The position numbers and the translations under genes were made by a program. The notes beneath the pieces were generated by a model. The model saw only the letters and a program-made list of their open reading frames with translations, ran no database searches and was not told the DNA's origin. Source: Candidatus Eiseniibacteriota bacterium (GTDB lineage Bacteria > Eisenbacteria > RBG-16-71-46 > SZUA-252). Taken from it: a stretch of DNA of 64,000 nt. Shown here in pieces: positions 3,001 through 54,426 of the stretch (position 1 is the stretch's first letter; each line of letters opens with the position of its first letter). The stretch is from contig CAVUEC010000011.1 in assembly GCA_963740415.1 (NCBI GenBank), positions 449,380 to 513,379 on the forward strand. Direction: 5' to 3'.

Positions 3001-6000
3001 GCGACCATCAACGCATCCACCGGCGCGTTCTCGTGGACCCCGACGGAAGCGCAGGGTCCGGGAACGTTCCCCGTCACGATTCGCGCCACCGACGACGGAA
3101 CACCGGCGCTGAGCGACTTCGAGGGGATCACGGTCACGGTCAATGAAGTGAATGTGGCGCCGGTGCTCGCCGCGATCGGAAGCAAGACGGTGAGCGAGCT
3201 GGCGACCGCTGGCATTCACCGCGACCGCGACGGATGCCGATCTTCCCGCGAACACGATCTCGTTCTCTCTGGACGCAGGAGCGCCGGCCGGTGCGACCAT
3301 CAACGCGTCGACCGGAGCGTTCTCCTGGACGCCGACCGAGGCCCAGGGCCCAGGATCATTCCCGATCACGATCCGGGCCACGGACAGCGGGACGCCGGCC
3401 TCTGAGCGACTTCGAGGGCATCACGGTCACGGTCAATGAGGTGAACGTGGCGCCCGCGGTCACCAATCCGGGCAACAAGACCGTCAATGAGCTGGTCGCG
3501 CTCGCGTTCACGGTCACCGCGACGGACGCCGATGTCCCGGCCAACACGGTGACCTGGTCGCTCGATGCCGGCGCTCCTGCCGGCGCGACCATTGGCGCCA
3601 CGACTGGGGCGTTCTCGTGGACTCCGACCGAGGCCCAGGGACCCGGCACTTACCCGGTGACCATTCGCGCCACGGACAACGGCACGCCGGCGCTGAGCGG
3701 CACGGCCGCGATCACGGTGACGGTCAACGACGTGAATGTGGCCCCGGCGCTCGCCGCGATCGGAAACAAGACGGTCAACGAGCTGGCGACCCTGGCGTTC
3801 ACCGCGACGGCGACGGACGCGGACCTTCCGGCGGACGCGATCTCGTTCTCCCTGGACGCGGGGGCTCCGGCGGGCGCGACCATCAACGCCACGACCGGCG
3901 CGTTCTCGTGGACGCCGACGGAAGCGCAGGGTCCGGGAGCATTCCCCGTCACGGTCCGCGCCACCGACGACGGAACACCGGCGCTGAGCGACTTCGAGGG
4001 GATCACCGTCACGGTGAACGAGGTGAACGTGGCGCCGGTGGTGACGAGCCCCGGGAACCATACGGTCAATGAGCTGAGCCTGCTCGCATTCACGGTGACC
4101 GCGACGGACGCCGACGTTCCGGCCAACACGCTGACGTTCTCGCTGGACGCAGGCGCTCCAGCCGGCGCGACCATCAACGCATCCACCGGCGCCTTCTCGT
4201 GGACGCCGACCGAGGCGCAGGGCCCGGGCGCGTACCCGATCACGATCCGCGCCACCGACAACGGAACCCCGGCGTTGAACGGCGCCGCGGCGATCACCGT
4301 TACGGTGAACGAGATGAACGTCGCGCCGACGCTCGCGGCGATCGGCAGCAAGACCGTGAACGAGCTGGTCGCGCTCGCCTTCACCGCCACCGCGACGGAT
4401 CCCGACGTCCCGGGCACGCTCACCTTCTCGTTGGACGCCGGAGCGCCGACCGGCGCCGCGATCAACGCGTCCACCGGGGCGTTTGCCTGGACCCCGACGG
4501 AGGCGCAGGGCCCAGGCAGCTATCCGATCACGGTGCGCGTCACGGACAACGGCGCGCCGGCCCTGGACGACTTCGAAACGATCACGGTCACCGTGAACGA
4601 GGTGAACGCCGCCCCGGTCCTCACGAATCCCGGCAACAAGACGGTCGCGGAGCTTTCGGCGCTCACGTTCACCGTGACGCCGACGGACTCCGACATTCCC
4701 GCGAACACGATGACGTGGTCTCTGGACGCCGGCGCTCCCGTTGGCTCGACGATCAACTCGGGCGGCGCCTTCAGCTGGACTCCGACGGAAGCGCAAGGCC
4801 CCGGCGTCTATCCGGTCACGATCCGGGCAACGGACAACGGAACCCCGGCGCTGGGCGGCACGACGGCGATCACGATCACCGTGACGGAGGTCAACGTCGC
4901 GCCGGTCATGAACAATCCGGGCAACAAGACCGTCAACGAGCTCGCGACCCTTTCGTTCACAGCGACCGCGACCGACGCGGACGTCCCGGCGAATACGTTC
5001 GCATGGTCCCTCGACGCCGGGGCTCCCGCGGGCGCCGCGATCGACGCCGGCACCGCCGCGTTCTCGTGGACCCCGACGGAGGCGCAGGGCCCGGGACTCT
5101 ACCCGGTCACGATTCGCGCGACCGACAACGGGGCGCCCGCGCTGAGCGACTTCCAGGTGATTACGGTGACCGTGAACGAAGTGAACGCGGCGCCGGCGGT
5201 GACCAACCCCGGCAACCGAACGGTCAACGAGCTCGTTGCACTCACGTTCACCGTGACGGCGACCGACTCCGACGTTCCCGCGAACTCCATGACGTGGTCC
5301 CTGGACGCCGGGGCGCCCGCCGGAGCCGCGATCAACGCGTCGACGGGGGCGTTCTCCTGGACCCCGACGGAAGCACAGGGCCCGGGCGTCTACCCGGTCA
5401 CGATTCGCGCCACCGACAACGGAACGCCCGCGCTGGCCGGCACCGCCGCGATCGCGATCACGGTCAACGACGTGAACTCGGCGCCGGCCTTGACCGCGAT
5501 CGGCAACAAGGCGGGCACGGTGGGCTCGCCGATCACGTTCACCGCGACGGCGACCGACCCGGACCTCCCGGCCAACACCCTGAGCTTCTCGCTCGACGCG
5601 GGCGCTCCGGCCGGCGCGACGATCAACGCGTCGACCGGAGCTTTCTCGTGGACCCCGGCCGCCAACGGCACGTTCCCCGTCACGGTCCGCGTGACCGACA
5701 ATGGAACGCCGGCCTTGAGCGACTTCGAGGCCGTCACGATCACGGTGAGCCCTGCGCCGAACCAGGCGCCGGTACTCGGCGCGATCGGCAATAAGACGGT
5801 GAACGAGCTGGCCACGCTGGCGTTCACGGCCACGGCGACCGATCCGGACGCGGGCCAGACGCTGACGTTCTCCCTGGACGCCGGAAATCCCTCCGGGTCC
5901 GCGATCAACGGAACCACGGGCGCCTTCTCGTGGACTCCAACCGAGGCCCAGGGGCCCGGAAGCTATCCCATCACGGTCCGGGTGACCGACAACGGGACCG

Positions 6001-9000
6001 CCCCGTTGAGTGATACGGAGGCGATCACGGTCACCGTCAACGAGGTGAACGCCGCGCCCGCGCTCGGTGCGATCGGCAACAGGACGGTGAACGAGCTCGT
6101 CGCGCTCACCTTTACGGCGACGGCGACCGATACCGATCTTCCGGCCAACGCCATCAGCTTCTCCATCGACGCCGGCGCACCCGGCGGCGCGACGATCAAC
6201 GCCTCGACGGGCGCATTCTCGTGGACCCCGACCGAGGCGCAGGGACCCGGCTCCTTCCCGATCACCATTCGCGCCACCGACAACGGCACGCCGGCGCTGA
6301 GCGATGCGGAGACGATCACGGTCACGGTGAACGAGGTCAACGCGCCGCCCGTGGTGATCGATCCGGGTGACAAGACGATCAACGAGATCGCCCTCCTGGC
6401 GTTCACCGTGACGGCGACGGACTCCGACGTTCCCGCGAACACGGTGGCGTGGTCGCTGGATGCCGGCTCGCCGGCGGGCGCGGCGATCAACGCATCGACG
6501 GGCGCATTCTCCTGGACTCCGACCGAAGCGCAGGGGCCGGGCACATATCCGATCACGATTCGCGCGACCGACAACGGAACGCCCGCGCTGAGCGGGACGG
6601 CTCCAATCACGGTCACGGTGAACGAGGCCAACGCCGCGCCGGTGGTAACGAATCCGGGCAACAAGACGGTCGACGAGTTGGCGGCGCTCGCGTTCACGGC
6701 CACCGCGACCGACTCCGACGTGCCGGCCAACACCGCCACGTGGTCCCTGGACGCCGGCGCCCCCGCGGGCGCGACGATCAACGCCTCGACGGGCGCATTC
6801 TCGTGGACCCCGACCGAAGCGCAGGGCCCGGGCTCGTTCCCGATCACCATCCGGGCGACCGACAACGGAACGCCCTCGCTGAGCGGTGCCGCGATCATCA
6901 CGGTCACGGTGAACGAGGTGAACGTGGCGCCGGTCGTGACCGATCCCGGCGACAAGACGGTGAACGAGCTGACCGCGCTCTCCTTCACGGTGACCGCGGC
7001 CGACCCCGACCTCCCGGCAAACACGCGGACGTGGTCGCTGGACGCCGGCGCCCCCGCCGGCGCGACGATCAACGCCTCAACCGGCGCGTTCAGCTGGACG
7101 CCGACGGAAGCGCAGGGGCCGGGGACCTATCCGGTCACGATTCGCGCGACCGACAACGGAACCCCCGCGCTGAGCGGTGCTACCACGATCACCGTCACGG
7201 TGAACGAGGTAAACGTCGCGCCCGTCGTGACGAACCCCGGGAACCGCACCGTCAACGAGCAGGTGGCGCTTTCCTTCTCTGTGACCGCGACCGATTCCGA
7301 CCTTCCCGCGAACGCGCTGACCTGGTCGCTCGACGCCGGCGCCCCCACGGGCGCCACGATCAACGCGACCACGCAGACATTCTCGTGGACGCCGAACGAG
7401 GCCCAGGGTCCCGGTACCTACCCGATCACCATTCGCGCCATCGATGACGGAACGCCCGCGCTGAGCGGCACGGCCGCGTTCACGGTCACGGTGTCCGAGG
7501 TCAACCGGCCTCCGGCGCTGACGACGATCGGCAACAAGGCAGGAACCGTAGGGATCCCCATCGCGTTCACCGCGACAGCGACGGACCCTGACACACCCGC
7601 CAATACGCTCGCCTTCTCACTGGATGCGGGCGCTCCGGCCGGCGCGACCATCAACGGGTCCACGGGCGCGTTCAACTGGACTCCCTCGACGAACGGCACC
7701 TTCCCCGTCACCATCCGCGTCACGGACAACGGGACGCCGGCGTTGAGCGACTTCGAGGCGATCACAATCGCGGTGAGTCCGGAGCCCAACCAGTCGCCGG
7801 TGCTCGGCGCGATCGGCAACAAGACGGTGAACGAGCTGGCGGCGCTTGCGTTCACGGCGACGGCTACCGATCCCAACGCGGGAGATCTGCTCGCGTTCTC
7901 CCTCGACGCGGGCGCCCCGACCGGAGCGGCGATCAACGGCTCGACAGGCGCGTTTGCCTGGACCCCAACCGAGTCGCAGGGCCCGGGCAGCTTCCCAATC
8001 GCCGTTCGCGTGACCGACAACGGCAGCCCAACCCTCAGCGACTTCGAGACGATCACGGTCACCGTAAACGAGGTGAACGCGGCGCCGGCGGTGGCGAGCC
8101 CAGGCGATAAGACGGTCAACGAGCATTCGAACCTCGCGTTCACGGCGGGCGCGGCCGACGCGGACCAGCCGGCGAACACGCTCGCCTGGTCCCTCGACGC
8201 GGGCGCGCCGGCGGGAGCCGCGATCAACGCGGCGACGGGCGCCTTCAGCTGGACTCCGACCGAGGCGCAGGGACCGGGCGTCTACCCCGTTACGATTCGG
8301 GCGACCGACAACGGAACGCCGGTTCTGAGCGGCGCCTCGGCGATCACGATCACGGTGAACGACGTGAACGCGGCGCCCGTGCTGGCCGCGATCGGCGACA
8401 AGACCGTGAACGAGCTCGCGACGATCACCTTCACGGCGACGGCCACGGACAGCGACGTGCCCTCCGGCATCGTGACCTTCTCGCTCGACGCGGGCGCTCC
8501 GGCCGGCGCCGCGATCAACGCTTCAACCGGTGCGTTCTCCTGGACGCCGACCGAAGCGCAGGGCCCGGGAAGCTACCCGGTGACGATCCGCGCGACCGAC
8601 AATGGAACGCCGTCCTTGAGCGATGCCGAGGCGATCGCCATCACGGTCAACGAGGTGAATATCGCGCCGGTCGTGGCGAGCCCGGGAAACCGGACCGTCA
8701 GCGAGCTGGCCGCGCTCAGCTTCGCGGTGACCGCGACCGACGCGGACGAGCCGACCAACGCGCTGAGCTGGTCGTTGGACGCGGGCGCTCCCGCCGGGGC
8801 CTCGATCAACGCCTCGACGGGAACCTTCGCGTGGACTCCCACGGAAGCGCAGGGATCCGGCACCTACCCGGTGACGATCCGCGCGACCGACAACGGGACG
8901 CCGGCCTTGAGCGGCACGGCGGCCGTCACGGTCGCGGTAACCGAGGCGAACGCGGCTCCCGTTCTGGCGCCGATCAGCGATCGAACGGTGAATGAGCAGG

Positions 9001-12000
9001 CCGCGTTGACCTTCACCGCCACGGCGACGGATGGTGATCTGCCCGCCAACACCCTGACCTTCTCGCTCGACGCAGGGTCGCCGACCGGCGCGACGATCAA
9101 CGCCTCGACGGGCGCGTTCTCCTGGACGCCCTCCGAGGCGCAGGGGCCGGGCACGTTCCCGGTCACGATCCGGGTGACGGACGGCGGGACCCCGACGCTC
9201 GGCGATTCTCAGACGTTTGCGGTCACCGTGAACGAGGTGAACGCCAGTCCGGTCGTGACAAATCCCGGCAACAAGACCGTCAACGAGCAGACGTTGCTGA
9301 GCTTCACCTTGACCGCGACCGACGCCGACGTTCCCGTCAACACGCTCACCTGGTCCCTGGACGCCGGCGCGCCGATGGGAGCCACCATCAACGCGACGAC
9401 GCACGTCTTCTCCTGGACGCCGACGGAGGCGCAAGGCCCCGGGGCGTACCCCATCACCGTCCGCGCCATCGACGACGGAACGCCGTCCCTGAGCGGGACG
9501 GCCCCGTTCACGGCGACCGTCAACGAGGTGAACATCGCGCCGGTTCTGGTGCCGATCGGGAACAAGGCGGGAACGGTCGGAATTCCCATCACGTTCACCG
9601 CGACGGCGACCGACGTGGACCTCCCGGTCAACACGCTCAGCTTCTCGGTCGACCCCGGCGCTCCGACCGGCGCGACGATCGACCCCTCGACGGGCGCCTT
9701 CACCTGGACGCCGACGGTAAACGGCGCAACCAGCGTCACCATCCGCGTGACCGACAACGGATCGCCACCCATGAACGACTTCGAGGTCGTTTCCCTCTCG
9801 GTGAGCGCGGCTCCCAACCGCGCCCCCGTGCTCGACGCGATCGGGGACCGCACGGTCAACGAGCTCGTCGCACTCACGTTCACGGCGACGGCGAACGATC
9901 CGGACGGCAACGCGATGACCTTCACCCTGGACGCCGGCGCCCCGGCCGGAGCGACGATCAACGGGGCGACAGGCGCGTTTGCATGGACCCCGACGGAGGC
10001 ACAGGGCCCGGGCAGCTTGCCCATCACGGTTCGGGTGACCGATAACGGCAGCCCTACCCTCAGCGACTTCGAAACGATCACGGTCACCGTCAACGAAGGT
10101 AACGAGCCGCCGGAGGTGGTCAGCCCTGGCAACCGGACCGTCCACGAGTTGTCCGCTCTCAACTTCACGGTGACCGCGACCGACGCCGACCTGCCGGCGA
10201 ACACGCTCTCCTGGTCCCTCGACGCGGGCGCGCCGAGCGGCGCCGGGATCAACGCATCGACGGGCGCATTCTCCTGGACGCCGACCGAGGCGCAGGGCCC
10301 GGGCTCCTATCCGGCGACGATTCGCGCGACCGACAACGGGTCGCCGGCGCTGGACGACGCGGCCGCGTTCACCATCCTGGTGGACGAGGTAAACGCCCCA
10401 CCCGTGCTGGCCGCGATCGGCGACAGGACCGTGGACGAGCTGGCCACGCTGGTCTTCACCGCCACCGCGACGGACGCGGATCTTCCCGCCAACGCCTTGA
10501 CATTCTCTCTCGACACGGGCGCGCCCGCGGGGGCGACGATCGGCGCCGCGACGGGCGCCTTCTCGTGGACTCCGTCCGAAGCAGACGGACCGGGCGTCCG
10601 TTCCGTGACGGTTCGGGTCGCGGACGACGGGTCGCCCTCTCTGAGCGACGCCGAGACGATCGCGATCACCGTCGTGGAAGTAAACTCGGCGCCGGTTCTG
10701 AACCCCATCGGCAACAAGGGGGGCGCGGTCGGCGTGCCCGTCGCGTTTACGGTGACCGCGACGGACGGGGACGTGCCCGCCAATTCGTTCGCCTTCTCGC
10801 TCGACGCGGGGGCACCCACGGGCGCGACGATCAACGCATCCACCGGCGCCTTCGGCTGGACGCCCAGTGCCACGGGCGTTTTCCCCGTGACGATCCGCGT
10901 GACGGACAACGGCACCCCGCCCTTGAGCGCCTTCGAGGAGATCACGATCACCGTGGGTTCGGCGCCGAACGCGCCACCGGTTCTCGCCGCGATCGGCGAC
11001 AAGACGGTGAACGAGGGGGCGGCCCTGGCCTTCACGGCGACCGCGACCGACCCCGACGCCGGCCAGACTCTGGCCTTCTCGCTCGACCCCGGGACTCCGG
11101 TCGGATCCTCGATCGACCCGGCGAGCGGCGTCTTCGGGTGGACCCCTACGGAGTCCCAGGGTCCAGGCAGCTATCCCATCACGGTCCGCGTCACCGACGA
11201 CGGGACCGGATTCCTGAGTGACTTCAAGACGCTCACCGTCACGGTGAACGAGGTGAACGCGGCACCCGTGCTCACCCCCGTTGGAAACAGGACCATCACG
11301 TCCGGCGCGCCCCTCGCCTTCACCGTCACCGCGACCGATGGAGACATCCCGGCCAACACGATCGCCTACACGCTGGGCGCGGGAGCTCCGGCCGGGGCGA
11401 CGATCGATCCCGGCACCGGTGCGTTCGCGTGGACGCCGTCCGCGGCGGGCGTGTATCCGTTGACGATCCGCGCCACCGACAACGGCGCGCCGCCAAAGAG
11501 CGCGACGGAAATGATCTTCATCACGGTGGGCGATCCCACGAACCGCGCACCGGTCCTGGCCGCCATCGGAAACCGGACCATCGACGAGTCGGTGCGCTCG
11601 ACCTTCACCGCGATCGCGACCGATCCCGACTTTGGACAGGGCCGGATCTTCACGCTGGATTCCGGCGCTCCCGCGGGAGCCACGATCAATCCAACGACTG
11701 GCGTCTTCGGCTGGACGCCGACGGACGCCCAGGGTCCGGGCAGCTACCCGGTCACGGTGCGGGTCACGGATAGCGGCACGCCGCCGTTGAGCGACTTCGA
11801 GACGATCACCGTCACGGTGCGCGACGTGAACGCGGCGCCGGTGCTCGTGGCCATCGGCAGCAAGACGGTTCTGCCCATGGTCGCGCTGACCTTCACCGCC
11901 ACCGCGACGGACCCGGACATTCCCGTGAACTCGCTCGCGTTCTCACTCGACGCGGGCTCGCCGCCGGGCGCCACAATCGACGCCGCGACGGGGGCGTTCA

Positions 12001-12110
12001 GCTGGACGCCCACGACCACGGGCTCCTATCCGGTGACGATCCGCGTCACGGATGACGGCACGCCGCCACTGAGCGACTCTGAGGGCATCACGATCACGGT
12101 GACGCCGCAG
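1..12110 (+). repeat. In-frame tandem coding repeats, ~285 nt (95 aa) period, ~42 copies. Two alternating flavours: A = AIGxKTVNELATLxFTATATD...SDFExITVTVNEVN; B = TNPGNxTVNELxALxFTVTATD...SGTAAITVTVNEVN. Some copies are near-identical at DNA level (e.g. ~1441-1540 vs ~2021-2120)
   Basis: Direct reading of the periodicity of the VNEVN(V/A)AP junctions in the translation and of repeated DNA blocks. Confidence 0.9.
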
Positions 12111-12392
12111 GCTCAGGTCACGGCCCTGCGGCACAATTACCCGAATCCATTCGGCGCCGCCACGCGGATCGACTATCGGCTCCAGCAGGAAGTCCACGTT
12201 CGCCTCGCGTTGTACGACATCCACGGCCGCGAGGTGAAGGTTCTCGTCGACGAAGTCCAGAGTCAGGGCGATCACAGCGCCGTGTGGGACGGAAGCGGGC
12301 GCGGCAAAACGCGAGTCGCGAGCGGCGTCTACATCTGCCGCTTAACGGCCGGTAGCGTGACCCTCAAGGGAACGATGATTCTGGAGCGCTAG
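1..12392 (+). CDS. Giant repetitive cell-surface adhesin (5'-partial; >4100 aa in window) built from He_PIG/cadherin-like ~95-aa repeats, with a T9SS C-terminal sorting domain. Interrupted by two apparent +1 frameshifts near 3205 and 3400
   Basis: Two long same-strand ORFs (61..3405, 3234..12392) are joined by a short segment in the third frame. Repeat unit is ...VNEVNVAPxLxxIGNKTVNELxxLxFTATATDxDxPANTxxxSLDAGAPAGAxINASTGAFSWTPTEAQGPGxYPxTIRATDNGTPxLS..., period 285 nt. C-terminus NYPNPFGAATRIDYRL...LALYDIHGREVKVL...SGVYICRL...KGTMIL matches the Por/T9SS CTD pattern. Confidence 0.85.
12124..12389 (+). other. T9SS (Por secretion system) C-terminal sorting domain of the adhesin
   Basis: Motif pattern NYPNPF...T.I.Y.L...V.L.IYD..GR.V..L......G.H...WDG......SGVY..RL.AG....K.MIL at the extreme C-terminus. 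Confidence 0.7.
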
Positions 12393-16540: not shown

Positions 16541-16573
16541 GCCGGCCCCGGCGGGCCGGCGTTGGAGGAAGGG

Positions 16574-17951
16574 ATGCCCGTCACCATCGTAGTGCCCCAG
16601 CTCGGCGAGAGCGTCGTCGAGGGCACGATCGGCAAGTGGCTGAAGAAGGTCGGTGATCCGATCGCGAAGGACGAGCCGATCGTCGAGATCATCACCGACA
16701 AGATCAACATCGAGCTTCCCGCCCCCACCGCGGGCACCCTGGGACAGATCGCGGTCGCGGAAGGCGTGGTGGCCCAGGTTGGCGATACGCTCGGCGTGAT
16801 CCTCGGACCGGGCGAATCGCTTCCGGCGGGCGGCGCTCCGGCGGCAAAGGCGCCGGCCGCATCCGCGGCCCCGGCGAGCGCGCCCTCGAGGCCCACTCCC
16901 AGTGCCCGCCGCACCGGCCCCCGCGATGTCCGCGCCCGCGACGATGATGACGGGCACCGCGGTCGCAACCGCGCCGCCCTCCACCGACGGCGCGAGGCTC
17001 TCGCCCGCGGTCCGGAAACTCGCCAAGGAGCACAACCTCGACGTCTCGCAGATCCGCGGCTCCGGCATGGGCGGCCGCGTGACCCGCGAGGACGTCTTGA
17101 CCCACATCGAAGGGCGTCGCGTCGCGGTTTCGGCCGGCATCGGTGCCGGAACCCCCGCGTTCGCGGCACCCGGCTTCGCGCCGGCGCCGGCCGCGGCCCC
17201 CAAGCCCCTCTCGCCGATCCCGATGCCCGTCCTGAGCGCGCCCGGCTCGCGCGAGGTCGAGGTCAAACCCCTCACCAACATCCGCAAGAAGATCGCGGAG
17301 AACATGGTCCGCTCGCGGCACACCACGGCCCACTGCTCCACCTGGGAAGAGGTGGACATGACCGCTCTCGTGGAGTTGCGGGGACGGCTCAAGGACAAGG
17401 TCAAGACCCAGTACGGTCTGAATCTAACGTACATGCCCTTCATCATGCGGGCGGTGACGCGGGCACTCAAAGAGTACCCGGTCCTGAACGCCTCGATGAC
17501 CGACACCGAGGTCCACTACAAGAAGTACTACGACATCGGCGTGGCGGTTCACCGCGACCAGGGACTGATCGTTCCGATCGTTCACGACGCCGACCGGAAG
17601 AGCCTTCTCCAGCTGGCCGCCGAAATCGACAATCTCGGCGCCCGCGCCCGCGCCGACAAGCTCACGCTCGACGACATCCAGGGCGGAACCTTCACGATCA
17701 CGAACGCCGGCATGTTCGGGGCGACCGCCTCGACGCCGATCATCAATTACCCCGAGGTCGCCATCCTGGGCGTGCACCTGATCCAGGAGCGCGCCGTGGT
17801 CCGCGACCACCGCGTCGTGGTCCGGTGGATGATGACCCTCGTGATCTCCTTCGACCATCGCCTGGTCGACGGCACGCCGGCCGTGATGTTCCTCCACCGC
17901 GTCAAGGAGCTGCTCGAAGACCCGGATAGCTGGCTCCTCGACTCCATCTGA
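16574..17951 (+). CDS. Dihydrolipoamide acyltransferase E2 (lipoyl domain + E3-binding domain + catalytic domain). Apparent +1 frameshift near 16900 in the Ala/Pro-rich linker
   Basis: Lipoyl domain (VPQLGESVVEGTIGKWLKKVGD...IITDKINIELPAP) in frame 2. E3BD (LSPAVRKLAKEHNLDVSQIRGSGMGGRVTREDV) and catalytic domain (...DHRLVDG) in frame 0. Confidence 0.8.
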
Positions 17952-18664
17952 TGTCGCGCTCCATTCCCCTCTACGACTTGGGCCGCGTTCCCTACCGCGC
18001 GGCCCTTGCGTTTCAACATCGCGCGGTCGAGCTGCGCTCGCGCGGCGAGGCGCCCGACGTCCTCTACGCGTTCGAGCACGAGCCGGTGCTCACCGTGGGC
18101 CGGTCCGGGCACGACGAGAATCTCCGCGCGGGGACGGCCGAGCTCGCGCGCCGCGGCATCGAGGTGGTGCCCGTCGAGCGCGGCGGGGACGTGACCTATC
18201 ACGGCCCGGGCCAGATCGTCGGTTATCCCATCCTCTCGCTGGACGGTCTTCCCGGCGGCCGCGATCTCCATCGCTTTCTCCGCGACATCGAACAGGCGTT
18301 GATCGAGTCTTTGCGCGCGTTCGGCATCCGCGCGGACCGCAAGCCTCCCTACACCGGCGTCTGGGCGGGAGATCAAAAGGTCGCCGCGATCGGCGTGGCG
18401 GTGCGCCGCTGGGTATCGTTCCACGGCTTCGCGCTCAACGTGGACCCGGATTTGAGCCACTTCGATCTCATCCACCCGTGCGGCATCCGCGATCTGGGCG
18501 TGGCGTCGATCCGCTCGCTGACGGGCCAAGCTCCCTCGCGCGAGGCGGTTCTCGCCGAGCTTGCGGCCGCGTTCTCCCGCGTCTGGGAGCGGCCGGTCCT
18601 CTTCCCCGCTCCGCTCGAATCGGCTCCCGACGTTCCGCTCCCATCGGAGACCGCGCATGTCTGA
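17951..18664 (+). CDS. lipB: Lipoyl(octanoyl) transferase LipB
   Basis: Homology (…AFEHEPVLTVGRSG…GGDVTYHGPGQ…HGFALNV). Start codon overlaps the E2 stop. Confidence 0.9.
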   Translation: MSRSIPLYDLGRVPYRAALAFQHRAVELRSRGEAPDVLYAFEHEPVLTVGRSGHDENLRAGTAELARRGIEVVPVERGGDVTYHGPGQIVGYPILSLDGLPGGRDLHRFLRDIEQALIESLRAFGIRADRKPPYTGVWAGDQKVAAIGVAVRRWVSFHGFALNVDPDLSHFDLIHPCGIRDLGVASIRSLTGQAPSREAVLAELAAAFSRVWERPVLFPAPLESAPDVPLPSETAHV

Positions 18665-20082
18665 GACGAAGGCCGCCGCGAGCCCGAAGCCGACCCGGAC
18701 CGAGAAGGATTCCCTGGGCCCCCTCGAGGTCCCGGCCGACGCCTACTACGGCGTCCAGACCGCGCGCGCCGTCGCCAACTTCCCGATCAGCGGCGAGCGG
18801 CTTCACATGGAGATGGTGCGCGCGGTGACCCGGATCAAGATCGCCGCGGCGCGCGCCAACGCCGAGCTCGGCGTCCTCGATCGCAAGAAGGCCGACGCGA
18901 TCGTGGCGGCCGCCGAGGAGATCCTGGCCGGCAAGCACGACAACCAGTTCGTGGTCGACGCGTACCAGGCCGGCGCCGGCACGTCGTTTCACATGAACGT
19001 GAACGAGGTGATCGCGAACCGGGCCTGCGAGCTGATGGGCGGGAAGCAAGGGCGACCACGCCCTCGTCCATCCGAACGACCACGTCAACATGGCCCAGTC
19101 GACGAACGACGTGATCCCGACCGCGATGCGCCTCGCGGCGCACGCGCTGGCGGGACCCTCTGACGCAGGAGATGGCCGCCCTGGCCGCGTCGCTGGACCG
19201 GAAGGCCCAGGAGTTCGTCGAAATTCTCAAGTCGGGCCGGACGCATTTACAGGACGCCGTTCCCATCACGCTGGGCCAGGAATTCTCGGGCTATCGCGAT
19301 TGCGTGCTGGGCTGGCGGTCGTCGCTGGAGCGAAGCCGCGAAGGGCTTTTGGCGCTGGGACTCGGCGGGAACGCGGCCGGCACCGGGATCAACGCCCACC
19401 CGACGCTATCGCGAGCGGGTCGTCGCGGAACTGGCCAAGCTGACCGGGACGCCGTTTCGCTCCGCCCCGAATCTCTTCGAGGCGATGCAGAGCATGGCGC
19501 CCTTCGTCCGCGTCTCGAACGATCTGCGCGGTTTCTGCCTGGACCTCACGCGGATCGCGAACGATCTGAGGCTCCTCGCGAGCGGACCCACCACCGGCTT
19601 CGACGAGATCGTGCTCCCGCGCGGTCCAGCCCGGCTCCTCGATCATGCCCGGAAAGGTGAACCCGGTGATCGCCGAGATGACCAACATGGTCGCCTACCA
19701 GGTCCTGGGCTACGACACGACGGTGGCCTACGCGGCGCAGGCGGGGCAGCTCGAGCTCAACGTGATGATGCCGGTTCTCGCCCACAACCTGCTCCGCTCG
19801 CTCAGCCTCCTCACGTCGACCCTCCGCGTGCTTCGCACGGCGTGCGTCGACGGGATCACGGCGAACGAAGAGGTCTGCCGGCGGTACTTCGAGCATTCGA
19901 TCTCGCTCGCCACCGCGCTCAATCCCTACATCGGGTACGCGCGGGCGGCCGAGGTGGCGAAGGAATCGGCGAAGACGGGAAAGACGGTCGTGGAGATCGT
20001 GCGGGAGCAGAAGCTCCTCAGCGAGGAGCAGATCGCCAAGGTGTTTTCTCCGCAGGCGATGACCCACCCCGGCGACGGGTAA
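18657..20082 (+). CDS. Aspartate ammonia-lyase / class II fumarase family (AspA-like), with at least four apparent +1 frameshifts (~19065, ~19160, ~19415, ~19635)
   Basis: Five consecutive same-strand ORF pieces together give a collinear 475-aa AspA/FumC-like protein ([55 protein letters not shown]...LNPYIGY). Confidence 0.7.
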
Positions 20083-23484: not shown

Positions 23485-24490
23485 GTGATTTGGGACGTGA
23501 TCATCATCGGCGCGGGACCCGCCGGGCTCTCGGCGGCCCTGTTCACGCGCATGCGCCGGATGTCGACGCTCCTGATCGAGACGGCGGTCGCCGGGGGCCA
23601 GCTCGCCTCTCTGTATCCCAAGAAGCCGGTCCACGATTACCCCTCCTACACCTACGTGATGGGCGAGGACCTCGGGAAGAATTTCGTGGACCAGGCAAAT
23701 CACATGGACGCCCGGATTCAATCCGGAGAGCACGTCACCATGATCGCCCGGGACGACGCCGCGAACTTGATTCGCGTGACCTCCACCAAGGGCGCCTACG
23801 AGGCGACGAGCGTCATCGTGGCAACGGGCGGCGGCGCGTTCGAGCCGCGGAAGATCAACAAGCCGGGCGAGGCGGAGCTGCGCGGAAAAGGCGTCTTCTA
23901 CGGCATGCCCGACGTCGAGGCCACTCGCGGAAAGCGGGTGCTGGTCATTGGCGGCGGGGACAGCGCTCTCGAGTCGGCGCTCTCCATCAAGGAGACCGCG
24001 GCGTCCGTGGCGCTGATTCACATGCTGGACAAGTGGCAGGGAATGGACAGCTACGTGGAGGACGTCCAGCAGTCCTCAATCCGCTCGATGCTCGAAACGG
24101 AGACGGTCGAGATCAAAGGCCGGGACCGCGTGGAATCCGTCCGTGGTCCGAAACAAGAAGTCGGCGGTGGAAGAGGAGATTCCCATCGACGTGGTGGCGA
24201 TCAATATCGGCTATCTCATGGACACGAAGATCGTCCGGCAATGGGGCCTCACGCTCGAGGGAAACCAGATTCTGGTCGACAACGTCATGAACACGAACGT
24301 GAAAGGCATTTTCTGTTGCGGGGACATCGCCACGTATCCGGGGAAATACAAACTGCTCATCACGGCCTGCAGCGAAGGCGCCGCCGCCGCCAACACCGCC
24401 TACATTTACGTCAAGCAGCCCAAGAAGTTCACGGTCGGCGAGCTCTACGCCGCTCCCAAGGAAGAAGGCGACACCCAGCCGAAGTCGTAG
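23485..24490 (+). CDS. Thioredoxin-reductase-like FAD/NAD(P) oxidoreductase (ferredoxin-NADP+ reductase type 2 family). Apparent +1 frameshift near 24150
   Basis: GTG start, IIIGAGPAGL dinucleotide motif, second GGGDSA motif. C-terminal segment continues in +1 frame after an extra C at ~24150. Confidence 0.75.
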
Positions 24491-49800: not shown

Positions 49801-51182
<1,382 letters not shown>

Positions 51183-51189
51183 GGTTGAT

Positions 51190-52855
<1,666 letters not shown>

Positions 52856-52982
52856 CGTTGAACATTATGACAGAAACGGCCCATTGCAGCAACTAAATTA
52901 TTGTGTTACAACGAATTACAATATATTTCATTAGTTAGTAATTGATTGTAATACTGCAAATCTTGTAAACTCATTGCCACAT
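52856..52982. promoter_or_regulatory. AT-rich (~30% GC) divergent control region between aceB and the RamB/ScfR-like regulator gene; contains repeated TTGTAA/TTACAA hexamers and a TTGCAGCAA palindrome
   Basis: Sequence composition and repeats read directly. Candidate -35/-10 (TTGATT-17-TAAACT) abuts the regulator ATG. Confidence 0.5.
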
Positions 52983-54426
52983 ATGAAGAAGAAAGCGATC
53001 GGTCTCGGGAAGCGAATCCACAGCCTCCGCCAGAAGGAGGGTTTGACCCAGGCCGCCCTGGCCGTCCGCCTGGGAATCTCCCCTTCCTACCTCAATCTGA
53101 TCGAAAACGACCGGCGCCCGCTCAGCGCGAATCTCCTGATCGCGCTCGCCAAGGCGTTCGACCTCGACCTGCGGGCCTTTGCGCCGGGTGAGGACTCCAA
53201 GCTCGTCTCCGACCTCATGGAGGCCTTCGGCGATCCCCTCTTCGAGGAGCGGAAGCTGACCGAAACCGAGGTCCGCGAATTCGTAGCGGGAAGTCCCGAG
53301 ATCGCCCGAGCGGTCACCCACCTCCACCACGCGTACACGGCGGCGCGGGGCTCGGCGGAGTCCATCGCGGCCCAGGTGCTCGACCGCCAGGATCTGTCCG
53401 CGGTGGACCGCGCGGGGCTCGCCGCGGAGGAGGTCTCCGACCTGATTCAGCGCCACGTGAACTATTTCCCCGAGCTGGAGGCCGAGGCAGAGCGCCTCTG
53501 GACGGATGCGAAGCTCGAGGATCATGACCTCTTCGAGGGGATCGCCGCGTACCTGGAGCGCGTGCACGGAATCGCGGTCCGGGTCCGGAAGTTGGGCGAG
53601 ATGGAGGGCGCGGTCCGGCGCTTCGACCCGGAGCGCCGGGAGCTCCAGATCTCGGAGGTGCTGCGGCGCGGCTCGCGCAACTTCCAGCTCGCGCACCAGG
53701 CGGGCCTCCTCACCAGCTCGGCGACGCTCGACGCGATCACCCGCGATCCTCTTCTCACGTCCGCGGGGTCGCGAGCGCTCTGCCGGGTCGCGCTCGCCAA
53801 CTACTTCGCGGGCGCCGTGGTGACCCCCTACGAGCAATTCTTCAAGGCGGCCGAGGAGGAGCGTTACGATCTGGATCTGCTCGGCCACCGCTTCCGGGTC
53901 AATTTCGAGCAGGTCTCCCACCGGCTGACCACGCTCAATCGCCCCGGCGCGAGGGGGATTCCCCTTCATATGGTGCGGATCGACATCGCCGGCAATATCT
54001 CGAAGAAGTTCAGCGCGACGGGGCTACGTTTTCCCCGCTTCGGGGGCCTTTGCCCTCTGTGGAACGTGCACGCCGCTTTCCTCCAGCCTGGCGTCATCCG
54101 TCGCCCAGCTCGACCGCCTGCCGGACGGAACCATGTTCTTCTCGGTGGCCCGCACGATTCGAAAACACCGCGGGGGCTATCACGCGCCCGAGGTGCTCTA
54201 TTCGATCGGACTGGGCTGTGACGTGGAATCGGCGGAGCGGATGGTCTACGCGGACGGGTTCGACCTGACGAACCCGGCCGGTGCCGTGCCGGTCGGGATC
54301 ACGTGCCGGCTGTGCGAGCGGCTCGATTGCCGCGCGCGCGCGTTCCCGTCGATCTACCAGCCGCTGCGGGTGGATGAGAACGTGAGGGGGGTGTCCTTCT
54401 TCGCGAGGCCCGAGGGGGAGAAATAA
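52983..54426 (+). CDS. XRE-family HTH transcriptional regulator with IrrE/DUF955-like and DUF2083-like C-terminal regions (RamB/ScfR-like short-chain acyl-CoA regulator family); apparent +1 frameshift near 54105
   Basis: HTH (LRQKEGLTQAALAVRLGISPSYLNLIENDRR), then a conserved C-terminal domain continuing in the +1 frame (…FFSVARTIRKHRGGYHAPEVLYSIGLGCD…CRLCER.DC..RAFPS). Divergent from aceBA. Confidence 0.75.

Follow-up and report, generated by a model that had tools for sequence, protein, structure and literature searches.

A conserved candidate control region between divergent aceB-aceA and RamB-like regulator genes in an uncultivated Eisenbacteria-like lineage

In the 64-kb stretch of Candidatus Eiseniibacteriota DNA analyzed here (the window), the gene for malate synthase (aceB) and the gene for a RamB-like regulator of the ScfR family are transcribed away from each other, and the locus raises the question of whether the gap between them is a shared operator through which the regulator controls both aceB-aceA and itself, as the initial annotation had proposed. 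The gap is 127 bp long (52856-52982) and is bounded by the malate synthase start codon on the minus strand (CAT at 52853-52855) and by the regulator ATG at 52983 on the plus strand, so that the location first given for it was confirmed. Its GC content is 31.5% compared to 67.0% for the window, which had been put at ~69%, and at scales of 60, 100, and 127 nt it is the sole segment below 45% GC, as its description as the only strongly AT-rich stretch had implied. From the comparisons reported below, we conclude that the gap is probably a shared control region, in which two divergent promoters are combined with operator repeats for aceBA and for the RamB-like regulator gene. The proposed role in autoregulation and aceBA control was supported, at the level of sequence comparison, by conservation of the blocks within the gap and by the likeness of their repeats to boxes in the Paracoccaceae.

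The two TTACAA and two TTGTAA hexamers that had been pointed out in the gap were all located, at 52906 and 52916 (10 bp apart) and at 52946 and 52963, respectively. Counting both strands, the window contains six TTGTAA sites, of which four lie inside the 127-bp gap. Shuffles of the gap itself gave four or more such hexamers at frequencies of 2.5e-5 (mononucleotide) and 1.5e-4 (dinucleotide); therefore, AT-richness alone does not explain their excess. The TTGTAA copies had been described as lying about one helical turn apart, but they are separated by 17 bp start to start, with an 11-bp gap between them, and the reading of TTGTAA-N11-TTGTAA as a pair one turn apart was rejected on this distance. 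The two copies are instead the outer members (1 and 3) of an array of three repeats, whose pattern TGYAAW-N2-TGYAAW-N3-TGYAAW occurs once in the window compared to 0.01 expected occurrences. An Rfam search of the gap and its flanks returned no match at E<=1, and an RNA element is thus unsupported.

We compared the gap with those of 80 loci carrying a gene for a related regulator (individual loci are cited by L numbers). The divergent regulator/aceB-aceA layout is present in about 60 of the 80, spread over at least five phyla (Eisenbacteria, Gemmatimonadota, Acidobacteriota, Anaeromyxobacter, and Planctomycetota), and the intergenic gaps of these syntenic relatives are likewise GC-poor. The nearest genome is a Candidatus Eisenbacteria metagenome-assembled genome (MAG; OY969801.1), with 84% DNA identity. 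Alignments within clades, together with two position-weight matrices refined on the gaps, resolved a layout in which, across 51-53 loci of several phyla, the hexamer-bearing blocks keep a constant spacing. Loci of the cultivable Anaeromyxobacter oryzae and A. terrae (L072 and L068) have this layout as well. The alignments and scans show directly which sequence features are present, that they are conserved and held in a fixed geometry, and with which gene each block travels. The features of the window, including the predicted promoters of aceB (P_aceB) and of the regulator gene (P_reg), are as follows.

52864..52872, minus strand: extended -10 of P_aceB, TGTCATAAT, 8 nt before the aceB ATG; the transcript would be leaderless or have a leader of at most 2 nt
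52887..52892, minus strand: -35 of P_aceB, TTGCTG, with a 17-bp spacer; overlaps TTGCAGCAA
52891..52923, plus strand: conserved module of 33 bp, family consensus CAATAAC..TTG..GTTA..TG; abuts the P_aceB -35
52894-52918: dyad TAAATTATTGTGTTACAACGAATTA, 25 bp, centered at 52906, at about -49 relative to the predicted start site of aceB
52906..52921, minus strand: left box TTGTAA-N4-TTGTAA, which is the TTACAA pair read on the other strand; points toward aceB, about -49 to -64
52938..52951, plus strand: right 14-mer GTAATTGATTGTAA, inverted partner of 52906-52919; overlaps TTGATT of P_reg
52942-52947, plus strand: -35-like TTGATT of P_reg; its TTG (52942-52944) is invariant in the close clade
52945..52970, plus strand: tandem array of TGTAAT (52947), TGCAAA (52955), and TGTAAA (52964) at 8- and then 9-bp spacing; putative autoregulatory operator
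52966..52971, plus strand: -10 of P_reg, TAAACT, formed by the third array repeat; the regulator ATG is 11 nt downstream

The array spans the spacer and -10 of P_reg. Its family consensus is TTGTAAAT-TTGTAAAT-C-TTGTAAACT, 28 bp in length, with TG(T/C)AA(A/T) repeats spaced by 8 and then 9 bp. In the window, the first TTGTAA is repeat 1, ACTGCAAA at 52953 is repeat 2, and the second TTGTAA is both repeat 3 and the P_reg -10. A resemblance to the core of corynebacterial RamB operators had been noticed earlier; ACTGCAAA is present as an array repeat, and the class-1 TTTGCAAA box is absent. Of 70 matches to the array matrix, 68 lie just upstream of a regulator gene, and the other two are weak. The array also precedes regulator genes that have no aceB neighbor (L029, L040, L048, L075-L077, and L080), and a paralogue group without an aceB or aceA neighbor (L042, L047, L050, L055, and L057) carries an array of its own, GTAAACTGAAAAGTCAGTAAAG, just before the start codon.

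The module contains both TTACAA copies, and its leading CAA is the TTG of the P_aceB -35 read on the opposite strand. Its matrix gave one match above 12 bits per locus and three weaker matches in the same gaps, and matched three loci left out of training. No match above 12 bits was found outside these gaps on either strand of the 858 kb scanned, which consisted of the ScfR-centered loci and the window. The module occurs only where the divergent neighbor is aceB or aceA. Because each block follows one gene in this way, we assign the array to the regulator promoter and the module to the glyoxylate-shunt promoter. Within the 64-kb window, the module and array matrices found no second site, and no further regulon member can be named there.

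The two blocks are held at a nearly constant distance: the GTTA of the module is 25-28 bp from the array in 53 of 53 loci, and 26 or 27 bp in 46 of them. The module is also partly symmetrical, with 7.3 of 12 complementary pairs about module position 16 compared to about 3.5 at neighboring centers. The first TTACAA supplies the center and right inner arm of this dyad, and the second covers the conserved GTTA. When 14-mer pairs in the gap were compared at spacings of 0-39 bp, the best was TTACAACGAATTAC (52906-19) with GTAATTGATTGTAA (52938-51), which match as inverted copies at 12 of 14 positions across an 18-bp spacer.

Conservation within the close clade was judged from the window and its three closest relatives (four sequences, three of them distinct). 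Both TTACAA copies, TGTAAT, TGCAAA, and TGTAAACT are invariant in this alignment, as are both -35 TTGs and the P_aceB -10 region. Freely varying positions are 52922-52941 and 52876-52889, the latter comprising most of the 9-bp palindrome TTGCAGCAA at 52884 (52884-52892). This palindrome had been listed among the operator-like elements, and it is indeed present; as an operator it was rejected, for it overlaps the P_aceB -35 and is unconserved in L088, L089, and L001, even at 93% protein identity.

A strict sigma-70 consensus scan of positions 52700-53150 called no promoter, and our promoter assignments consequently rest on cross-species conservation and on distance to the start codon. For P_aceB, ATGACAG at the -10 is invariant in the closest clade, as is the TTG of the -35 (CAA at 52890-52892), while the remaining letters of the palindrome vary. 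Across the family, the -35 reads TTGCCA, TTGACA, TTGACT, and similar; a hexamer resembling a -10 comes 16-17 nt past the conserved TTG, and most Eisenbacteria-type loci begin aceB 5-8 nt beyond that hexamer, which would make the mRNA leaderless. For P_reg, about 27 of 30 Eisenbacteria-type loci have a start codon (ATG or GTG) at 5-8 nt from TAAAnT. The corresponding distance is 9-27 nt in Gemmatimonadota, often with a Shine-Dalgarno-like GGAG, and roughly 30 to more than 100 nt in Anaeromyxobacter. On these distances, the aceB-aceA and regulator mRNAs of the window appear to be leaderless or nearly so. Five loci of one clade (L009, L011, L014, L015, and L025) have a GC-rich hairpin of about 85 nt and a Shine-Dalgarno sequence between the conserved aceB promoter and the start, for example on the minus strand at L011:5795-5895. 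This aceB-leader hairpin is absent from the window; its fold has ordinary stability (z=-0.68), and it gave no Rfam match.

Together, these features are consistent with the following model. A divergent pair of sigma-70-type promoters would drive aceB-aceA (P_aceB) and the gene for the RamB-like ScfR regulator (P_reg) from start sites predicted near 52857 (minus strand) and near 52978 (plus strand), a distance of about 121 bp, and the TTGTAA-like repeats, which read outward from the center of the gap, would be binding sites. The most likely binder is the adjacent regulator, which by homology to PrpR and RamB is predicted to be a tetramer dependent on acyl-coenzyme A (acyl-CoA) and a [4Fe-4S] cluster. 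Because the array covers the spacer and -10 of P_reg, regulator bound there (about -33 to -9 of P_reg) would be expected to block its own promoter, resulting in negative autoregulation. Bound at the distal box (about -49 to -64), the regulator could activate P_aceB, or repress it when ligand is missing; this would fit Paracoccus RamB, an activator on acetate and apparently a repressor on succinate. The fixed 25-28 bp separation and the inverted 14-18-14 pair also suggest that a single oligomer contacts both the module and the array. Where the promoters lie, which protein binds, and in which direction it regulates are the inferred parts of this model.

The closer analogue of this locus is the class-2 RamB of Paracoccus rather than the class-1 RamB of corynebacteria. 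In P. denitrificans Pd1222, class-2 RamB is encoded divergently from ms-icl and recognizes a motif, located upstream of the malate synthase gene at a distance of 82 bp, in which two boxes of almost the same sequence flank an 18-bp spacer; a box length of 14 bp follows from the 80-bp probe used, which comprised this motif with 17 bp added at either end (Kremer et al. 2023, PMC10370305). Both boxes are required for activation and for binding, and box mutation abolishes RamB binding; the protein activates on acetate, appears to repress on succinate, and passes from tetramer to dimer with CoA esters (PMC10370305). A link to ethylmalonyl-CoA has also been reported for Paracoccus RamB.

To place boxes in related species, we took the best direct 14-18-14 pair in the ramB-aceB gaps of Paracoccaceae plasmids (hereafter, inferred boxes). 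Pairs made of TTGTCA/TTGTAA repeats were found in four of five gaps, 82-106 bp from aceB. In P. versutus and P. ferrooxidans the inferred boxes are GTCAATCTTGTCAC and GTAAGGTTTGTCAC, the second of which abuts the ramB ATG; in P. alcaliphilus they are ATTGTCATTCATGT and ATTGTAATTTTTGT, 82-83 bp from aceB; and in Rhodovulum they are TGTCGGTGTTGTCA and TGTAAGGTTTGTCA. All consist of paired TTGT(C/A)A repeats at a distance of 9-10 bp, a unit shared with TTGTAA-N4-TTGTAA and GCAAATCTTGTAAAC of the window. The proteins correspond as well: full-length identity between the regulator family of the window and the P. versutus protein is 42%, with conservation of the recognition-helix segment SPSYLNLIENDRRP between the window regulator and Paracoccus. 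Azospirillum (47% identity) also fits, with CAATAA... followed by CCTGTAAATCCGTAAATCTTGTAAATT. Separately from the 14-18-14 boxes, two Paracoccus loci (L082 at 4365-4392, and L083) contain a second, conserved direct repeat, GTAATGTCAC-AGTA-GTAATGTCAT, 25-50 nt upstream of aceB.

The window therefore shares with Paracoccus an ScfR-family regulator gene divergent from malate synthase and isocitrate lyase genes, an arrangement also seen in the Paracoccaceae plasmids; a short gap (127 bp compared to 134 bp in P. versutus); and, apparently, an operator of paired boxes about two helical turns apart, one of which, among the inferred boxes of related Paracoccaceae, abuts the regulator start. It differs in having a conserved module that abuts the aceB -35, in mRNAs that appear leaderless where Paracoccus aceB has a Shine-Dalgarno sequence, and in its host, an uncultivated Eisenbacteria-like lineage.

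Comparison with actinobacterial members of the family gave a looser correspondence. The Mycobacterium tuberculosis (Mtb) PrpR operator, TTTGCAAA-N1-TTTGCgAA, lies between prpR and prpD and has two tandem 8-bp boxes spaced by 9 bp; mycobacterial RamB sites contain TTTGC(A/G)AA (Tang et al. 2019, PMC6765138). The window regulator has family, fold, and a C-X2-C-X4-C Fe-S motif in common with PrpR, and tandem boxes, which in the window are box-like repeats at 8- and 9-bp spacing, lie between regulator and divergent target in both. Unlike the PrpR operator, the window has three boxes plus a distal site, a TTGTAA core instead of palindromic TTGCAA, and aceB-aceA instead of prpDC or icl1 as the target; its boxes match TTTGCAAA at just 5-6 of 8 positions, and TTTGCAAA itself has no occurrence in the 64-kb window. 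RamB of Corynebacterium glutamicum (class 1) recognizes a 13-bp motif, AA/GAACTTTGCAAA (PMC4448153). The C. glutamicum protein belongs to the same protein family and regulates aceA/aceB together with acetate metabolism; it is mainly a repressor, and its gene, unlike that of the window, is not divergent from an aceBA operon. It is reportedly also negatively autoregulated. A class-1 (Corynebacterium-type) RamB regulon was rejected for the window because TTTGCAAA is absent and because the regulator scores 315 bits against the NCBIfam class-1 RamB equivalog NF038139, below its cut-off of 700.

In Sinorhizobium medicae pSMED01 (L086, ~2420-2480), tandem boxes TTGCGAAG/CGCAAAT/TGCAAAAT/TGCGAAC at 7-8 bp spacing precede the start of an ScfR gene, and these boxes (TTGCGAA/TTGCAAA) are of the classical TTTGCAAA type. 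Since this ScfR gene is also preceded by tandem boxes, such boxes over the regulator's own promoter seem, as far as these loci indicate, to be a theme of the whole ScfR family.

Several points weigh against reading the gap as a shared control region bound by the regulator. Its support comes from sequence comparison. The Paracoccus boxes were deduced from related species and the published geometry, the P. denitrificans sequence having been published as a figure; and, compared with them, the best 14-18-14 pair of the window is inverted instead of direct, and its proximal site consists of three adjacent repeats instead of one 14-bp box. The family-wide excess of symmetry within loci over that between loci is modest (6.7 compared to 6.1 of 12 pairs; P=0.003), and the left inner arm of the dyad varies in the nearest relatives. 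Moreover, the strongest module columns (TAAC/GTTA) are not obviously the array motif, so that a second factor could bind there, and both proposed promoters match the sigma-70 consensus at only 8 of 12 positions. Lastly, the regulator gene and both enzyme genes are frameshifted in the window.

The first alternative to be weighed is that the gap holds promoters only, its repeats and AT-richness representing core-promoter or upstream-element sequence and its TGTAAA-like repeats being related to RNA polymerase (for example, as competing -10-like hexamers) with no operator. The third repeat does coincide with a -10, each repeat resembles TAnnnT, the conserved CAA corresponds to a -35 TTG, and AT-rich back-to-back promoters are expected in a high-GC genome. 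However, repeats 1 and 2 lie in a spacer that is conserved across phyla, which is unusual for promoter spacers, and polymerase makes no sequence-specific contacts with hexamers upstream of the -35, which is where the TTACAA pair is found. In addition, the array follows ScfR genes specifically, and the inferred Paracoccus boxes use the same type of repeat, in a system in which mutated P. denitrificans boxes lose RamB binding. We consequently consider a gap without operators improbable.

A second alternative is that a different factor, such as a global carbon regulator or a nucleoid-associated regulator, occupies the dyad module and that ScfR binds the array alone. The best-conserved module columns (CAATAAC ... 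GTTA) are unlike the array consensus, and the module tracks aceB/aceA where the array tracks the regulator gene. CAATAA-N4-TTG has what we take to be the 6+4+3 layout of an integration host factor (IHF)-type site, although only about 3 of the 6 positions of the first block match. By contrast, the 25-28 bp separation of module and array in every locus suggests one complex, the module contains a TTGTAA repeat in the clade of the window, and the sequence scanned (the ScfR-centered loci and the window) had no module match away from ScfR-linked loci. On balance, two separate binders seem unlikely. A conserved spacer, a type of repeat that recurs in the inferred Paracoccus boxes, and an array that stays with ScfR genes are, in combination, explained less well by these alternatives, or by the relic locus considered below, than by a shared control region to which the regulator binds.

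The genes on either side of the gap bear on both the identity of the regulator and the frame disruptions, and have the following coordinates.

49801..51257, minus strand: isocitrate lyase (aceA), in two frames with the junction near 50695 by analysis of GC content at third codon positions (GC3)
51190..52855, minus strand: malate synthase A (aceB), ATG at 52855; compared to relatives, 1 nt is inserted near 52120
52983..54426, plus strand: ScfR/RamB-like regulator, in which 1 nt is inserted near 54101 and the C-terminal 97 aa are in another frame (54133-54426)
16562-17948, 18663-20076, 23485-24484, ~50695, ~52120, and ~54101: frame-split places, which include the genes for the E2 acyltransferase, fumarase C (fumC), a thioredoxin-reductase-like protein, aceA, aceB, and the regulator

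The naming of the divergent genes as a glyoxylate-shunt aceBA pair was borne out by domain matches to malate synthase A and isocitrate lyase. For malate synthase, the N-terminal and TIM-barrel domains (profile 1-79) are in the frame of 52855, and TIM-barrel 97-247 and the C-terminal domain are in the open reading frame (ORF) 51190-52068; the indel was mapped by comparison with L001, and aceB is intact in L088 and L089 (554 and 545 aa). For isocitrate lyase, positions 139-428 of the Pfam/NCBIfam profile fall in ORF 49801-50985 and positions 20-142 in ORF 50601-51257; the aceA coordinates are outer ORF limits, and the true start is downstream of the aceB stop at 51190.

The regulator, described at the outset as an XRE protein with IrrE and DUF2083-like domains, matched the corresponding profiles: HTH_3 (an XRE-type helix-turn-helix; E=5e-14, residues 12-64), Peptidase_M78 (IrrE-like, PF06114; E=1e-20), and ScfRs (PF09856, DUF2083), of which profile positions 1-68 are in the first frame and 69-157 in ORF 54133-54426. 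It also matches the crystal structures of M. tuberculosis PrpR (E=1e-82). The C-X2-C-X4-C motif ITCRLCERLDCRA was read directly near 54300-54340, and its cysteines C441, C444, and C449 are invariant in regulator alignment A1; it is predicted to be a [4Fe-4S] cluster motif. Homologues of the regulator are intact at 480 aa.

Frame-split genes are common elsewhere in the window, where they include fumC (at least three pieces), the 2-oxoacid dehydrogenase E2 gene, and a thioredoxin-reductase-like gene, and for this reason the splits look like indel errors of an indel-prone, perhaps long-read, assembly rather than decay of the locus; the GC3 screen also flagged junctions between genuinely separate genes (TldD/PmbA and CcmF/E/H). 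The isocitrate lyase gene of L001 (2772-3722 of that locus, OY969801.1) is frame-split too, which suggests similar assembly errors in that MAG. Elsewhere in the window, the plus strand contains one very long ORF of 3052 aa (3234-12392). That the gap is the nonfunctional relic of a control region between pseudogenes of aceB, aceA, and the regulator, as a frame disruption in each of the three genes and intact aceB and regulator genes in the closest relatives could suggest, is very improbable, because frame-split genes are spread over the window in a manner that points to assembly indels, codon-position GC bias is strong outside the single-base indels, and the conserved intergenic motifs are all intact.

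A shared promoter-operator region that serves aceBA and the regulator thus accounts best for this locus. A bolder version of it, which we put forward tentatively and consider doubtful, is a nucleoprotein switch fixed across phyla, in which one acyl-CoA- and [4Fe-4S]-sensing ScfR tetramer bridges the dyad box and the array. A ligand-driven change in oligomer would then shut one leaderless promoter and open the other, 121 bp away. The underlying layout, a dyad followed after 26 or 27 bp by three repeats, is undescribed in the ScfR literature that we examined.

Judged by these comparisons, the locus appears to be a real and strongly conserved promoter-operator region of a known kind, in which an ScfR/RamB regulator would control divergent aceBA and itself, and it reveals no new mechanism. 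What is modestly new is the lineage (Eisenbacteria and other soil phyla), the fixed module-spacer-array layout, the inverted boxes, and the leaderless promoters. Through ScfR/RamB regulators, the glyoxylate shunt is tied to acyl-CoA pools and possibly to iron status, and experimental work on these proteins has been confined to Actinobacteria and a few Alphaproteobacteria. Together with its approximately 60 relatives, the present locus extends the logic of a divergent regulator/aceBA pair with repeat boxes to uncultivated soil lineages of Eisenbacteria, Gemmatimonadota, Acidobacteriota, and Anaeromyxobacter. The comparison also provides a testable map of sites, comprising box positions, the 25-28 bp module-array spacing, and leaderless start sites, which could be of use in metagenome-assembled genomes for the prediction of acetate and fatty-acid regulons.

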